From: Pseudomonadota bacterium
GTDB lineage: Bacteria > Pseudomonadota > Gammaproteobacteria > Pseudomonadales > Pseudomonadaceae
NCBI GenBank assembly: GCA_023388335.1
Contig: JAEWGL010000213.1
Coordinates: forward strand, 14,186 to 78,185
Direction: 5' to 3'
DNA length: 64,000 bases
The notes below the pieces were generated by a model. It saw only the letters and a program-made list of their open reading frames with translations, was not told where the DNA came from and did no database searches. Shown one piece after another: positions 37,349-41,592 of this stretch (its first letter is position 1; each line of letters starts with the position of its first letter). The position numbers and the translations under genes were made by a program.

Positions 37349-37630
37349 TCAGTCCTGGCGGCTGGTCACTTCCAGCAGGTGATAGCCGAACTGCGTCTTG
37401 ACCGGACCCTGGACCACGTTCACCGGCGCGCTGAAGACCACGGTGTCGAACTCCTTGACCATCTGGCCCGGACCGAACGAACCCAGGTCACCGCCTTGGC
37501 GGCTGGATGGGCAGGTGGAGTTGGCCTTGGCAACTTCGGCGAAATCGGCACCGGCTTCGATCTGGGCCTTGAGTTCGTTGCACTTGTCTTCAGTGGCGAC
37601 CAGGATGTGGCGGGCAGTGGCTTTGGCCAT
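37349..37630 (-). CDS. ppiC: parvulin-type peptidyl-prolyl isomerase C, second paralogue
   Basis: ATG at 37630 after AAGGAG gives MAKATARHILVATEDKCNELKAQIEAGADFAEVAKANSTCPSSRQGGDLGSFGPGQMV...FGYHLLEV. Confidence 0.9.
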   Translation of the reverse strand: MAKATARHILVATEDKCNELKAQIEAGADFAEVAKANSTCPSSRQGGDLGSFGPGQMVKEFDTVVFSAPVNVVQGPVKTQFGYHLLEVTSRQD

Positions 37631-37740
37631 GGGAAATACTCCTTGGGAAAACGCCAAGCCTAGCGCAAAACGTAGAGGGCTGTCTTCAGGTCGTGGCGAC
37701 GATGGGGTTGCAGTCCGCCGCCCCCCTTTGCATATCGCCC

Positions 37741-38802
37741 TCAATGCTGTCCGGCCGCTTTGCGCAACAGCGCTTCGGTCGAGGCCCAGCCCAAGCAACC
37801 GTCGGTGATCGACACGCCGTACTTCAATGCGCCCTTGCCCAGCGGCTGGCAGCCGTCGAACAAGTGGCTCTCGAGCATCACGCCGACCAACGTGCGGTCG
37901 CCCGCGGCACGTTGTCCCAGCACATCCTCAAGTACCGCGGGCTGGCGTGCCGGGTCCTTGCCGCTGTTGGCGTGGCTGCAATCGACCATGATGCGCGCCG
38001 CCAACCCGGCCTTGGCCAAGCCTTGACGTGCCTGCTCGACATCGGCGGCAGCATGGTTGGGCCCCTTGTGGCCGCCGCGCAGCACCAGGTGGGTGTCGGG
38101 GTTGCCGAGGGTTTCGACGATGGCCGGGTAGCCCTGGGCATCGATGCCGAAGTGCCGGTGCGGATGCGAAGCGCTGCGGATAGCGTCGCAGGCGATGGCC
38201 ACGCCGCCATCGGTGCCGTTCTTGAAGCCGACCGGCAGGCCCAGGCCACTGACCATCTCGCGGTGGATCTGCGACTCGGTGGTGCGTGCGCCGATGGCGG
38301 CCCAGCTGAGCAGGTCGTCGAAGTAGCCGGCGGCCATCGGCTGCAGCAGCTCGGTGGCAATGGGCAGTCCGCGTTCGAGCATGCCGAGCATCAAGCCACG
38401 GGACAGGGCCAGGCCGGCATGCATGTCATCGCTGCCATCCAGGTGCGGGTCGTAGGCAAGGCCTTTCCAGCCGACGGTAGTGCGGGGCTTTTCGACGTAG
38501 GCGCGCATCACCAGCAACAACTGGTCGTCAACCTCGGCGGCGAGGGCGGCCAGGCGGTCGGCGTATTCCAGCGCCGAGCGCGGGTCGTGCAGCGAGCATG
38601 GGCCGACGATGACCAGCAGGCGCGGGTCGCGGCCTTCGAGGATGGCGCGTACGGCCTCACGGTGCTGTTCGACTTGGTGGGCAAGGGCAGTGCAGAGCGG
38701 CATCTGCTGCTTGAGCAGGTGCGGGCTGGGCAGGCGTTGGCTGACGGCGGTGTTGGCCGCTTGGGGCTGGGTCAAGGGCAGGGCGAGAGAAGACGATTGC
38801 AT
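37741..38802 (-). CDS. class-I (AroF/G/H-type) 3-deoxy-7-phosphoheptulonate (DAHP) synthase
   Basis: 353-aa ORF with ...DPRLLVIVGPCSLHD..., KPRTTVGWKGL and IGARTTESQ motifs. The feedback specificity (Phe, Tyr or Trp) cannot be read from the sequence. Confidence 0.95.
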   Translation of the reverse strand: MQSSSLALPLTQPQAANTAVSQRLPSPHLLKQQMPLCTALAHQVEQHREAVRAILEGRDPRLLVIVGPCSLHDPRSALEYADRLAALAAEVDDQLLLVMRAYVEKPRTTVGWKGLAYDPHLDGSDDMHAGLALSRGLMLGMLERGLPIATELLQPMAAGYFDDLLSWAAIGARTTESQIHREMVSGLGLPVGFKNGTDGGVAIACDAIRSASHPHRHFGIDAQGYPAIVETLGNPDTHLVLRGGHKGPNHAAADVEQARQGLAKAGLAARIMVDCSHANSGKDPARQPAVLEDVLGQRAAGDRTLVGVMLESHLFDGCQPLGKGALKYGVSITDGCLGWASTEALLRKAAGQH

Positions 38803-38853
38803 GGCGATTAGATTCCCTGGGCGGACGGCGGGTTCAAGCCCGCGCGGTCGGCC

Positions 38854-39003
38854 CTATCGAGGTGTTCGACAATTGGCCGGGTTGGCGTCGTGTGTTGAGT
38901 TGCCACCAGGCAGGAACCGATCGGAGGCGGCAGGCTGGCCCGAACGGGATTGGCTAAATCGCCAGGCGTAGGTGCTTGGGTAGAGGTAGGTGGCGTAGTT
39001 CAT
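38854..39003 (-). CDS. candidate leader ORF 2 (49 codons, Tyr-rich N-terminus) immediately upstream of DAHP synthase
   Basis: Not in the ORF track (<60 aa). GAGGA-7 nt-ATG at 39003. Translation MNYATYLYPSTYAWRFSQSRSGQPAASDRFLPGGNSTHDANPANCRTPR*, with 4 Tyr, 1 Trp and 1 Phe in the first 16 codons. Confidence 0.35.
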   Translation of the reverse strand: MNYATYLYPSTYAWRFSQSRSGQPAASDRFLPGGNSTHDANPANCRTPR

Positions 39004-39041
39004 GGATCAATCCTCGGTATGAATAGGTGTGGTTCGGCCGG

Positions 39042-39079
39042 AAAAACAAAACCCCCGGTCGGGAGGCCGACCGGGGGTT
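39042..39079 (-). terminator. strong rho-independent terminator between the two leader ORFs
   Basis: Read on the minus strand: AACCCCCGGTCGG-CCTC-CCGACCGGGGGTT (a perfect 13-bp stem) followed by TTGTTTTT. Confidence 0.8.
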
Positions 39080-39129
39080 GAGTATTCTCGTGTTCGGCGG
39101 CCCCTCGAGAGTGGGCGCCGGTGTGGGTA

Positions 39130-39264
39130 TCAGCGGCGCCTGTGGCTAAACCAATACCCAAAATAGAAGCTGGCAGGAGCGACCGCCGGGCAACCGGCCA
39201 CGGCCAACCCAGGGCGCGCGGTGCGACCGGTATGACGAGCGAGGTTGAGGGTGGCGTTTGGCAT
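39130..39264 (-). CDS. candidate leader ORF 1 (44 codons) ending in an F-Y-F-G-Y-W-F run
   Basis: Not in the ORF track (<60 aa). GGAGAG-4 nt-ATG at 39264. Translation MPNATLNLARHTGRTARPGLAVAGCPAVAPASFYFGYWFSHRRR*. The aromatic codons TTC TAT TTT GGG TAT TGG TTT lie at 39168..39148. Confidence 0.45.
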   Translation of the reverse strand: MPNATLNLARHTGRTARPGLAVAGCPAVAPASFYFGYWFSHRRR

Positions 39265-39288
39265 GTTGCTCTCCAGTTGATGGCCCCG

Positions 39289-39318
39289 AGCTTACTGCAG
39301 GCGGCGAGTGGGTTTCAA
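39289..39318 (-). promoter_or_regulatory. sigma70-like promoter upstream of leader ORF 1
   Basis: Read on the minus strand: TTGAAA-18 nt-TAAGCT, about 25 nt upstream of the leader ATG and 36 nt downstream of the acyl-CoA dehydrogenase stop. Confidence 0.35.
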
Positions 39319-39353
39319 TGACTAAATGCAATCACGGCAATGATTAAGGCCTA

Positions 39354-40505
39354 TCAAAGTGGATAGTGCTTGAGCTCCCGTGCAATGAGCATGCGCTGGA
39401 TTTCGCTGGAGCCTTCGTAGATCTGGGTGATTCGCGCATCGCGGTAGTAACGCTCGACCGGATAATCCTCCAGGTAGCCATAGCCACCATGGACCTGGAT
39501 GGCCATCGAACAGACCCGCTCGGCCATTTCCGATGCGAACAGCTTGGCCTGGGAGGCTTCGCTCAGGCAGGGCTTGCCCGCGGTTCGCAGGCGTGCGGCA
39601 TGCAGGATCAACAAGCGGGTGGCGTTGACCTGCAGCTGCATGTCGGCGAGCAGGTTGGCGATGCTCTGGTGCTCGTTGATCGGCTTGCCGAACTGGATAC
39701 GCTCACGTGCGTAGACCAGCGCGGCCTCGAACGCTGCGCGGGCGATGCCCAGCGCCTGCGCGGCGATGCCGATGCGCCCGCCTTCGAGGTTGGACAGGGC
39801 GATGGCCAGGCCCTTGCCGCGCTCACCCAGCAGGTTGGCGGCGGGGATACGGCAGTTGTTCAAGGTGACCGCGCAGGTGTCGGAGGCGCGGATGCCCATC
39901 TTGTGCTCACTACGGTCAACCACGAAACCTTCGTTGTCGGTCGGCACCAGAAACGCCGACAGGCCTTTCTTGCCCAGTTCTGGATCGGTCACGGCAAACA
40001 CGATGGCAAGGCCTGCTCGGCGGGCGTTGCTGACGAACTGCTTGGCACCATTGATCACCCAGTGGTCGCCGTGCAGTTCGGCACGGGTACGCAGGTTGTG
40101 GGCCTCGGATCCGGCCTGGGGTTCGGTCAGGCAGAAACAGCCGATCACCTCGCCGCTGGCCAGGCGCGGCAGCCACGCCTGTTGTTGCTCGGGATTGCCA
40201 TAGGCCAGCAGCGGGCCGCAACCGACCGAGTTGTGGATGCTCATCAGGGCGCCGGTGGCCCCATCACCAGCGGAAATTTCCTCCACCGCCAGGGCATAGG
40301 CCACGTAGTCGGTGTAGCTGCCGCCCCAGTCCTCGGGGACGACCATGCCGAGCAGCCCCAGCTCACCCATCTTCCGGACCACACTGTCGTCGATCCAGCC
40401 GGCCTTTTCCCAGGCCTGGGCATGGGGTGCGATTTCGCCACGGGCAAAATCCCGGGCCATGTCGCGGATCATGATCTGCTCTTCGCTCAGTTCCAGGTCT
40501 TGCAT
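39354..40505 (-). CDS. acyl-CoA dehydrogenase
   Basis: ATG at 40505 ([29 protein letters not shown]...). C-terminal [18 protein letters not shown]. Confidence 0.92.
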
Positions 40506-40521
40506 CTGTGTACTCCCGTGC

Positions 40522-41592
40522 TCACAGGCCTTCGAAGAATTGCTCGACACGCTGGCGATCAAGCTCGGCCAAGGTCGGCGGGTTCCAGCGTGGCTGCTTG
40601 TCCTTGTCGATGATCAGCGCGCGCACGCCCTCGATGATGTCGCCGTGCTCGAACCATTGCCGGTCCAGGTGCAGCTCCATGGCAAAACAGTCTTCCAGGC
40701 TCAGGCGCCGACCGCGACGCAGCATCTCCAGGGTAACCGCCATCGCCAAGGGCGAACGGGTTTCCAGCTGATCGGCGGTGGCCAGCGCCCATTGGTGACT
40801 GTCGGCCACGGTTACCGTGCGCAGCTGCTCGATGATGCTGGGTACGTCGGGGAGGGCGAAGAAGTGGTCGATCACCGGCCGCAGCTTCTCCAGCGGCGCA
40901 TCCCCCAGCACCTGGGTACCGAGTTTTGCCAGCAGGCCCTGGAGGTCTTTGAGCGGCTGCTCACCGAAGCTCAGGCGGTCGAGGCCCTCGTCGAGGACGG
41001 CCAGCTTGTCGCTCCCCAGGTACCAATCGGCCAGCCCGCAGTAGAGGGCATCAGCAGCCTGGATTTGGGCGCCGCTGACACCAAGGTAGGCGCCCAGTTC
41101 GCCAGGCATGCGCGACAGGAAGTAGCTGCCGCCAACATCCGGGAAGTAGCCGATGCCCACTTCCGGCATGCCCAGGCGGCTGCGCTCGGTCACCACGCGC
41201 AGATCAGCGCCCTGGGCCAGGCCCATGCCGCCACCGAGGGTGAAGCCGTCCATCAGCACCAGGATAGGTTTGCGGTAGTGATGAATGCATAGGTCGAGGG
41301 CATATTCCTCGACGAAGAAGTCATGGTGCAGGTGGGCGCCGGTCTTGAAACTGTCGTACAGCGAGCGGATATCGCCGCCGGCGCAGAAGCCCTTGGGGCC
41401 TTCGCCTCGCAGCACTACGGCCTGTACCTGGCTATCCTCGGCCCAATCGTCCAGGTGCCGCTGCAGGCTGCGGACCATGTCGAGGGTGAGGGCGTTGAGG
41501 CCGGCAGGGCGGTTGAGGGTCAAGTGTCCGATGCAATTGCGGACATCGGCCAGTACGGGGGCCGACGCAGAGGTATCAGCATGCGCGGTCAT
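40522..41592 (-). CDS. enoyl-CoA hydratase/isomerase family protein (3-hydroxyisobutyryl-CoA hydrolase-like)
   Basis: 356-aa ORF. Crotonase fold ([23 protein letters not shown]) with the long C-terminal extension typical of HIBCH-type hydrolases. Confidence 0.88.

Follow-up and report, generated by a model that had tools for sequence, protein, structure and literature searches.

The Pseudomonas RNA P15 as a probable leader-peptide attenuator of a DAHP synthase gene, with a second conserved reading frame downstream

The stretch of 64,000 nucleotides (nt) analysed here, called the window throughout, belongs to contig JAEWGL010000213.1 of a member of the Pseudomonadaceae and encodes on its minus strand a 3-deoxy-D-arabino-heptulosonate 7-phosphate (DAHP) synthase. 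The assignment of this gene to the type I enzymes is based on NCBIfam models NF009395 (514 bits) and TIGR00034 (443 bits). Upstream of it, two short open reading frames (ORF1 and ORF2) flank an intrinsic terminator whose end is 240 nt away from the DAHP synthase ATG. The next gene upstream, encoding an acyl-CoA dehydrogenase (40562..39354), is co-oriented with this region and ends 275 nt 5′ of the terminator stem (39079). Our analysis points to the region as the 5′ leader of the DAHP synthase mRNA, with a first part that is probably an attenuator sensing phenylalanine, tyrosine and tryptophan. An earlier note on this DNA had placed a promoter, Shine-Dalgarno (SD) sequences, both ORFs, a run of aromatic codons and the terminator here. 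All of them were found on the minus strand where that note had put them, and only the gap between ORF2 and the DAHP synthase gene needed correction, from 52 to 51 nt. The coordinates of all features are given in Table 1.

Table 1. Features of the leader region and the DAHP synthase gene, in coordinates of the window.
Feature	Coordinates	Strand	Details
Candidate sigma-70 promoter of the leader transcript	39289..39318	-	TTGAAA 39318-39313, 18-nt spacer, TAAGCT 39294-39289; promoter function putative
A/T-rich block	39319..39330	-	TGCATTTAGTCA, directly 5′ of the -35 hexamer
Leader ORF1 with SD	39130..39274	-	GGAGAG 39274-39269, 4 nt, ATG 39264, stop TGA 39132-39130
ORF1	39264..39130	-	44 codons; peptide MPNATLNLARHTGRTARPGLAVAGCPAVAPASFYFGYWFSHRRR
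Control codons	39148..39168	-	TTC TAT TTT GGG TAT TGG TTT (FYFGYWF), ORF1 codons 32-38
Hairpin 1 (segments 1:2)	39124..39160	-	UGGGUAUUGGU 39160-39150 pairs with GCUGAUACCCA 39134-39124; minimum free energy folds
Alternative helix 2:3	39114..39140	-	GGCGCCG 39140-39134 pairs with CGGCGCC 39120-39114; constrained folds
Hairpin 2 (segments 3:4)	39095..39120	-	CGGCGCCC pairs with GGGGCCGCCG 39104-39095
Putative antiterminator (segments 4:5)	39063..39104	-	GGGGCCGCCG 39104-39095 pairs with CGG-U-CGGCCUC 39073-39063; truncated-transcript folds
Intrinsic terminator (segments 5:6)	39042..39079	-	13-bp stem 39079..39050, CCUC loop, UUGUUUUU tail
Rfam RF00627 'Pseudomonas sRNA P15' match	39052..39172	-	covariance-model scan
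ORF2 with SD	38854..39015	-	GAGGA 39015-39011, 7 nt, ATG 39003, stop TAG 38856-38854
ORF2	39003..38854	-	49 codons; ends 51 nt before the DAHP synthase ATG
ORF2 conserved blocks		-	UGGCGAUUUAGC 38964-38953; CGAACAC 38868-38862
Tentative H-type pseudoknot in ORF2	38902..38947	-	helix A 38947-38940/38924-38917; helix B 38931-38926/38907-38902
GC-rich hairpin between ORF2 stop and DAHP synthase SD	38819..38853	-	SD is AGGGAA 38818-38813
DAHP synthase, type I-alpha (AroF/G/H family)	37741..38802	-	353 aa

A scan with Rfam covariance models identified the first part of the leader as a member of family RF00627, named 'Pseudomonas sRNA P15'. The match covers positions 39172..39052 and all of the model (positions 1-119 of 119), with 110.4 bits and an E-value of 4.8e-23 at a gathering score of 70 bits. 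Such a scan had been proposed in the earlier note, which had overlooked that the RNA is already catalogued and, likewise, that the control codons form the 5′ strand of hairpin 1 while its 3′ strand holds the stop codon of ORF1. P15 was predicted with sRNAPredict2 by Livny et al. in 2006 and confirmed by northern blot in P. aeruginosa PAO1, where a band of ~180 nt and further bands were seen in exponential and stationary phase (PMC1524904). In PAO1 it is located 221 nt upstream of a co-oriented gene of 1092 nt, and its upstream neighbour is divergent (PMC1524904). Rfam classes the family as 'Gene', not as a cis-regulatory or leader element, and both Rfam and the original paper describe P15 as a small RNA (sRNA) gene without a mechanism (PMC1524904); a paper from 2008 proposed 'riboswitch' on the basis of synteny, as a guess. 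In the literature on P15, PA2943 or aroF attenuation we found no description of P15 as a leader-peptide attenuator. The RF00627 consensus can be read in frame as UAU UAU UUU GGG UAU UGG CUU AGC CAC UGG CGC GCC UGA, so that the aromatic codons and the stop are part of the family signature. Its first stem corresponds to our hairpin 1, its second to hairpin 2 and its last to the terminator, which is preceded by a small hairpin.

The run FYFGYWF in ORF1 is the sole 7-codon window with at least six Phe, Tyr or Trp codons among ~128,000 such windows in the six frames of the 64 kb. For comparison, 80 loci were gathered around relatives of the DAHP synthase (labelled with L-numbers). A leader of this type is present at ~55 of them, upstream of DAHP synthase orthologues with 59-88% protein identity (L001-L054) and of L061, in Pseudomonas, Stutzerimonas, Halopseudomonas, Halomonadaceae, Salinisphaera and others, and in every orthologous locus the P15-like leader precedes the DAHP synthase gene in the same orientation. 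Among the 80 loci it was not found upstream of the ~55%-identical Pseudomonas paralogue or of more distant relatives; judged by sequence, only one of the Pseudomonas DAHP synthase isoenzymes would thus be under P15-type control. At its gathering score RF00627 detects the leaders of Pseudomonas, Stutzerimonas and Halopseudomonas and misses those of Halomonadaceae, L047, L049 and L061. The leaders below this score (L038, L039, L045-L054 including L047 and L049, and L061), from Halomonadaceae, Salinisphaera, Cernens and Thiopseudomonas, are located ~100-400 nt upstream of the DAHP synthase match and show the same architecture, so that the family extends beyond what the Rfam model and the name 'Pseudomonas' cover.

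Within ORF1 the N-terminus diverges between the leader-bearing loci and the C-terminal end is nearly invariant, reading [FY]Y[FY]GYWFSH[WR]RA* in Pseudomonadaceae and ..GYGYWF.xGVP.. in Halomonadaceae. In almost all orthologous loci, representing ~50 lineages, a GGAG(A) motif is found 6-8 nt before an in-frame ATG, which is itself 78-117 nt upstream of GYWF. Among 49 distinct orthologous sequences the three codons preceding GGG are aromatic in 36/49, 42/49 and 44/49, in a mixture of TTT, TTC, TAT and TAC. Over a ten-codon window the aromatic fraction amounts to 0.59 in the frame of ORF1, compared with 0.08 and 0.17 in the other two frames, and codons for Phe, Tyr and Trp are all found in each lineage. 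Selection on decoding predicts such a pattern, with the aromatic class retained and both the residue and its synonymous codon free to drift; selection on the peptide or on the RNA sequence alone would not be expected to conserve only the aromatic class. ORF1 homologues are called sporadically in the protein collection and are annotated there only as 'hypothetical protein'. A further observation concerns the paralogue loci L062-L078 of Pseudomonas, where neither an aromatic leader ORF nor P15-like sequence is seen upstream of the second type I DAHP synthase.

From the control codons onwards the leader can adopt two mutually exclusive sets of pairings, with segments 1:2, 3:4 and 5:6 in one and 2:3 and 4:5 in the other. 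In the window, RNAduplex energies are -15.8 kcal/mol for 2:3 and -19.7 kcal/mol for 4:5. Segment 2 (GGCGCCG) begins 12 nt after the W codon, and the ORF1 stop codon is kept inside it. The antiterminator target in segment 5 consists of the inner half of the terminator 5′ arm and the whole loop; since helix 4:5 would cross the outer terminator stem, its formation excludes the terminator. The latter is conserved in all orthologous loci and consists here of a stem with 10 G-C pairs among 13 bp and then TTGTTTTT, ending at 39042. In constrained folds, helix 2:3 forms only with a ribosome holding segment 1. Minimum free energy (MFE) structures at equilibrium say nothing about the switch, since the 13-bp terminator prevails whatever the state, and folds of truncated transcripts were used instead, in which the RNA was cut before the terminator 3′ arm and the ribosome footprint was set at 12 nt from the first base of the A-site codon. 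Under these settings and for 56 sequences, a ribosome at the stop codon lets 3:4 form ahead of the terminator in each of the lineages. When it is stalled on a Y or W codon instead, 2:3 forms and segment 4 pairs with 5 in all 56; this 4:5 helix has 4-10 pairs in 56/56 sequences and at least 5 pairs in 54/56.

The alternative helices are maintained by different sequences in different lineages. For 2:3 we found GGCGCCG:CGGCGCC in the putida group, AGG.GCGCCUG:CAGGCGCCCU in citronellolis and stutzeri types, GGCACGCCU:AGGCGUGCC in L047, GGCGUGCC:GGCACGCC in most Halomonadaceae, GGGGUGCGCC with a matching partner in L045, and GGUGUGCC:GGCACACC in L048. Compensatory variants of 4:5 include GGGUUGCC:GGCAACC and GGGCUGCC:GGCAGCC, and further variants are GGGAG-CCUGGCC:GGCUGG-UCUCC in L061 and GCCUGA:UCAGGC in L047. 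In whole-leader MAFFT alignments the helices fell into different registers between clades. Column-wise covariation was therefore dropped in favour of an alignment-free test, in which for 20 lineages each segment was paired with its own partner and with the partners of other lineages. Cognate pairing was stronger for all three helices, with mean energies of -18.2 against -15.3 kcal/mol after permutation for 2:3, -16.8 against -14.7 kcal/mol for 3:4 and -14.9 against -12.5 kcal/mol for 4:5, and in each case 0/5000 permutations were as good; the test ignores phylogeny, so that these figures reflect several compensatory events and not 20 independent ones.

These variants bear on the question whether P15 might be a trans-acting sRNA gene only, with ORF1 untranslated and the aromatic 'codons' kept as RNA sequence. 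The classification as 'Gene' in Rfam, the discovery of P15 as an sRNA with a discrete band of ~180 nt (PMC1524904) and the core GGGUAUUGGUUUAGC, which is invariant even at synonymous sites, would all agree with such a role. A plain sRNA, however, does not need compensatory changes in 2:3 and 4:5, nor would it account for an SD and in-frame ATG kept in ~50 lineages despite diverging sequence between them, for codons 5′ of the stem that swap TTT, TTC, TAT and TAC yet remain aromatic, for a stop codon retained inside segment 2, or for the strict linkage to one DAHP synthase orthologue. We therefore give this explanation little probability. Terminated attenuator RNAs can nevertheless act in trans, as described for rnTrpL in Sinorhizobium (PMC7968998), and by this precedent a trans role of P15 would be possible in addition to one in cis.

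Taken as a leader-peptide attenuator, P15 would work as a six-segment device with a layout like that of the his leader. The account given here, from translation of the ORFs through the direction of the switch to all of the physiology, is inferred from the sequence and the modelled folds. The transcript would begin ~15 nt before the SD of ORF1. With charged tRNAs for Phe, Tyr and Trp available, the ribosome would pass FYFGYWF and reach the stop codon inside segment 2; because segment 2 is then covered, segment 3 would pair with 4, the 5:6 terminator would form, and the transcript would end near 39042, giving the short 'P15' RNA. In the absence of translation, hairpins 1:2, 3:4 and 5:6 would form and lead to termination as well. 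If any of the aromatic tRNAs is short, the ribosome would stall on the Y, W or F codons and hold segment 1. Segment 2 would then pair with 3, leaving segment 4 free to pair with the emerging inner 5′ arm and loop of the terminator; the terminator would be blocked and RNA polymerase would continue. The prediction is thus that stalling favours read-through, and that smooth or absent translation favours termination. Read-through transcripts would carry the second translated upstream ORF, Tyr-rich and then with W-R-F, which might add a second step of control, coupling or gating the expression of the DAHP synthase by way of translation or of Rho-dependent termination.

A different possibility is that the terminator merely ends the operon of the acyl-CoA dehydrogenase and that the DAHP synthase has a promoter of its own downstream of 39042, the small ORFs being accidental. 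The upstream gene is indeed co-oriented and close, with its end 275 nt before the stem. In a comparison limited to presence or absence of this gene, since naive ORF calling for strand is unreliable in GC-rich DNA, an acyl-CoA dehydrogenase was nevertheless upstream in only 1/80 loci, yet terminator and leader occur in all orthologous loci; changes of the upstream gene, as far as the sequences tell, leave the leader element in place before the DAHP synthase. The divergent upstream gene of PAO1 (PMC1524904) is equally at odds with an upstream-operon terminator, and so are the positions of the promoter-like sequences. The ~40 nt between terminator and ORF2 SD vary freely and no conserved promoter was seen in them among the loci, whereas TTGAA-N17/18-(G)TAAGCT is kept upstream of ORF1, at the same distance from its SD, across Pseudomonas loci; Halomonadaceae have TTGCCAA-N-TAGGAT at the equivalent position. 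A consensus promoter scan did not score 39289..39318 because the -10 hexamer matches at only 3/6 positions. Given also that ORF1 and ORF2 are extreme aromatic outliers, we consider the chance that the terminator only serves the upstream operon to be minimal. In Pseudomonas an A/T-rich block, TGCATTTAGTCA here and AGAAATTACTGA in the fluorescens group, is kept directly 5′ of TTGAA. It may serve as an UP element or as the site of a regulator; it is no TyrR-box-like palindrome.

The highly structured RNA and its conserved sequence could also suggest a riboswitch or a protein-binding attenuator (e.g. TyrR/PhhR-type or TRAP-like) that senses a metabolite or regulator. A scan of 37500-40500 against Rfam at E <= 10 matched no riboswitch family and gave, besides P15, a single chance-level match (anti-hemB, 15 bits against a gathering score of 49.5). 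Moreover, the conserved core consists of small hairpins with alternative pairings and has no ligand pocket, and this explanation leaves the SD-ATG pair, the open frame, the aromatic codons, the stop position and the 12-nt spacing from W to segment 2 unaccounted for. It seems to us very improbable.

Downstream of the terminator, ORF2 is the only one with six Phe, Tyr or Trp codons among 1387 ATG-started open 16-codon stretches in the 64-kb window. Its SD (GAGGA) and ATG are conserved across loci, and it starts with a Tyr-rich sequence, MNYATYYRYD.. in most loci and MNYATYLYPSTY in the window. A block UGG CGA UUU AGC (UGGCGAUUUAGC) is nucleotide-invariant from Pseudomonas to Halomonadaceae, including the non-preferred UUU and CGA, and a second conserved block, CGA ACA C, is found close to the end of ORF2. 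Both fixed Arg codons are thus CGA, which GC-rich genomes use rarely and decode slowly. Between the W codon and the ORF2 stop there are 108 nt in the majority of putida- and fluorescens-type loci, with variants of 99, 105 and 111; these differ by multiples of 3 and the stop remains in register with the following hairpin, an argument for translation of ORF2 over its full length in this frame. Neither the +1 nor the -1 frame of ORF2 is conserved. Substitutions between the blocks show no third-position bias, so that the peptide itself is probably not under selection. Taken together, ORF2 appears conserved and is probably translated. As a side observation, its UGGCGAUUUAGCC (38964..38953) resembles UGGUUUAGCC of ORF1 (39153..39144), from which it differs by an inserted CGA.

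The surroundings of the ORF2 stop differ between clades. In the group with short-form ORF2 the hairpin after the stop is the sole consensus structure, with two pairs changed on both sides, and in Halomonadaceae the stop is located -4 to +5 nt from the DAHP synthase ATG. Both layouts suggest a coupling between the end of ORF2 translation and initiation at the DAHP synthase gene. Furthermore, base composition is skewed: in Pseudomonadaceae the C/G ratio of ORF2 is 1.5-2.2 (C ~35-40%, G ~20%) compared with 1.0-1.35 in the DAHP synthase gene, a C-rich and G-poor composition that is seen neither in ORF1 nor in the ORF2 of Halomonadaceae and that would suit a loading (utilisation) site for Rho. The ORF1 and ORF2 units may descend from a duplication.

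Within ORF2 we tentatively propose an H-type pseudoknot. The corresponding block comprises 65 nt without gaps in putida- and fluorescens-type loci and Halomonadaceae (L001-L035, L044-L054) and is absent from short-form ORF2 loci. In the alignment 93.6% of cells are paired, compared with 18-54% after displacement of the partners by 1-3 columns; hardly any pair varies and only one is changed on both sides, which makes for weak covariation support. Single-sequence folding of the ORF2 region was no more stable than that of shuffled sequence (z = -0.48). The helices CGUUCGG/CCGAUCG and GCCGCC/GGUGGC are joined by loops of 8, 1 and 9 nt, and 7 nt separate UUUAGC from the start of the block. The helices coincide with the conserved residues RSG, AA, SDR and GG, and selection at peptide and RNA level is inseparable in these data.

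Several other functions for ORF2 were considered and rejected. Sequestration of the SD by GGUUCC[UGC]CUGG (38918-38906) pairing with CCAGGGAAUC would have its upstream strand in a freely varying stretch. Frameshifting at UUUAGC with its 7-nt spacer and pseudoknot lacks an X XXY YYZ heptamer; in addition, a UAG follows immediately in the -1 frame, and the position of the +1 stop ranges from 28 to >1200 nt among loci. Read-through of the stop, fusing ORF2 to the DAHP synthase, would be in frame here, but the relative frame varies between loci, with stop offsets of -50, -51, -52 and -54. A further pairing is of more restricted occurrence: UGGCGAUU(U)AG (38964-38954) is complementary to CUAAUCGCCA (38811-38802), which reaches the A of the DAHP synthase ATG. 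It is found in putida, aeruginosa, stutzeri and oleovorans types and in two Halomonas loci, not in the fluorescens group and others, and masking of UGGCGAUU(U)AG raises the predicted accessibility of the ribosome-binding site (RBS) only in lineages that have it. The pairing could be a lineage-specific RBS trap opened by a ribosome on W-R-F, or chance. The loci that have it share a CGCCA or UGCCA box between SD and ATG.

The leader as a whole might be a two-stage device, in which the P15 attenuator is followed by ORF2 as a separate sensor, a possibility that we regard as doubtful at present and put forward tentatively. The second stage may consist in Rho-dependent attenuation, gated translational coupling, or arrest by a nascent peptide that reads free aromatic amino acids. 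If true, the two stages would allow entry into the shikimate pathway to respond both to tRNA charging and to a further signal, and ORF2 is the part of the leader that could prove new.

In the overall assessment, several points weigh against a P15 attenuator acting as proposed, in addition to the phylogenetic limit on the permutation test. The stems are near-constant within Pseudomonas, so that the covariation signal comes mostly from few deep lineages, and the invariance of GGGUAUUGGUUUAGC at synonymous sites means that part of the 'codon' conservation is at the RNA level. At equilibrium the terminator is the MFE structure under every ribosome mask; the switch must therefore be kinetic, as in trp and his, and kinetic switching was modelled only by truncation of the transcript. 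In some lineages, including the window, 4:5 is the MFE structure of the truncated RNA even for a ribosome at the stop, and discrimination would there depend on 3:4 forming first. As to ORF2, no terminator follows it, a simple logic in which stalling lowers coupling would oppose the first stage, and the change in RBS accessibility predicted on a W/F stall is small and lineage-dependent, with a rise only in some lineages.

Weighing these points, we estimate at roughly 80% the probability that the DAHP synthase is controlled by P15 as a leader-peptide attenuator sensing Phe, Tyr and Trp. The estimate draws on the anatomy of the sequence, its conservation, complementarity of the helices that co-varies between lineages, and the match to a known family. 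The earlier note had proposed an attenuator at this place, and the conserved ORF1, its SD and ATG, the aromatic codons, the terminator, the exclusive helices and the linkage to the DAHP synthase all speak in its favour. The conservation that it wished to see examined extends, for ORF1 and its aromatic codons, to ~55 loci upstream of orthologous DAHP synthases. RNAduplex and constrained folding gave the three alternative pairings that it had aligned by hand, and the folding analysis that it suggested yielded mutually exclusive helices with complementarity kept across lineages. It had left undecided whether a stall would give read-through or termination, and the truncated folds favour read-through in silico. 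Its description of two tandem leader ORFs went too far in one respect: ORF2 is conserved and probably translated, but a leader role was overstated as no terminator follows it.

With respect to neighbouring genes on the minus strand, the acyl-CoA dehydrogenase is accompanied upstream by a gene resembling 3-hydroxyisobutyryl-CoA hydrolase (39354..41592 for both), and a PpiC-type prolyl isomerase is encoded downstream of the DAHP synthase (37349..37798). This synteny of flanking genes is common only to L001, from P. putida strain 31303, whose DAHP synthase is 88% identical, and by it the window can be assigned to the P. putida group.

P15 has been an sRNA of unknown function since 2006, and reading it as an attenuator provides a function that can be tested. 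If true, entry into the shikimate pathway would be controlled by tRNA charging in Pseudomonadaceae, Halomonadaceae and neighbouring groups, and deletion of the leader or terminator could deregulate a DAHP synthase isoenzyme in P. putida strains used for aromatic chemicals. It also bears on sRNA catalogues, in which terminated leader transcripts are counted as sRNA genes, and on the interpretation of transcriptomes and of tRNA-modification mutants, as the control codons in both ORFs (UUU, UAU, UGG) all belong to the UNN class, which MiaA-modified tRNAs decode. Deletion of miaA in P. aeruginosa raised shikimate, shikimate-3-phosphate, Phe and Tyr, which was attributed to trpL leaders, and the paper makes no mention of a DAHP synthase leader (PMC13434334). 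The RNA itself (RF00627) and the type of mechanism are both known and have precedents. The apparently new elements are the connection of P15 with attenuation, its occurrence in a wider range of taxa, the direction in which the switch works and the conservation of ORF2.

Among known systems, P15 of PAO1 is the same RNA, with the same hairpins and terminator and the same placement before a co-oriented gene (gap 221 nt); unlike the Rfam entry and the original account, we propose a translated-ORF attenuator with a defined antiterminator. The closest functional analogue is aroR-aroF of C. glutamicum. There, a leader peptide with Phe-Tyr-Phe (AroR) is encoded upstream of aroF, stalling raises aroF transcription, and the response is to Phe and not to Tyr supply (PMC11802643, summarising Neshat et al. 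2014). An aromatic leader peptide thus precedes a DAHP synthase in both cases. The two differ in that they have no sequence relation and come from different phyla, that aroR is a simple switch compared with six segments here, and that the present leader has Phe, Tyr and Trp codons in every lineage and a second conserved upstream ORF.

ORF2 can be compared with the upstream ORFs of the Salmonella mgtL/mgtA, tnaC/tnaA and speFL/speF systems, in which mgtA, tnaA and speF are under Rho-dependent or translational control. It would share with these conserved special codons and a stop beside control structures, and with a Rho-loading site the C-rich, G-poor composition; this is a resemblance, and no membership in these systems is claimed. 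It differs from mgtL, TnaC and SpeFL in that no sequence similarity was found in NCBIfam and Pfam searches. For the peptides of ORF1 and ORF2 (putida-type and fluorescens-type) these searches gave no match at E <= 10, including to profiles of PheL, TrpL, HisL, TnaC and SpeFL-type leader or arrest families.

In the enterobacterial his, pheA (pheL), pheST and trp leaders, control codons for the product of the pathway, a terminator and mutually exclusive helices set by the ribosome are found in the same combination. The his leader follows a six-segment scheme with A:B, C:D and E:F opposed to B:C and D:E, and the layout of the P15 leader matches it. By comparison with these leaders, the gene regulated here would encode the enzyme that opens the common aromatic pathway, the control codons stand for three different amino acids and are placed at the end of a long peptide (39-53 aa), and there is no sequence homology, the leader models of NCBIfam and Pfam being unmatched. 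The DAHP synthases of E. coli are controlled by the repressors TyrR and TrpR (PMC11802643). What the P15 leader has in common with established attenuators is a short ORF preceded by an SD, a cluster of codons for the pathway products, a terminator and, in silico, a ribosome-dependent antiterminator. A specialist would not find an attenuator of this kind surprising, and its assignment to P15 is useful for engineering.

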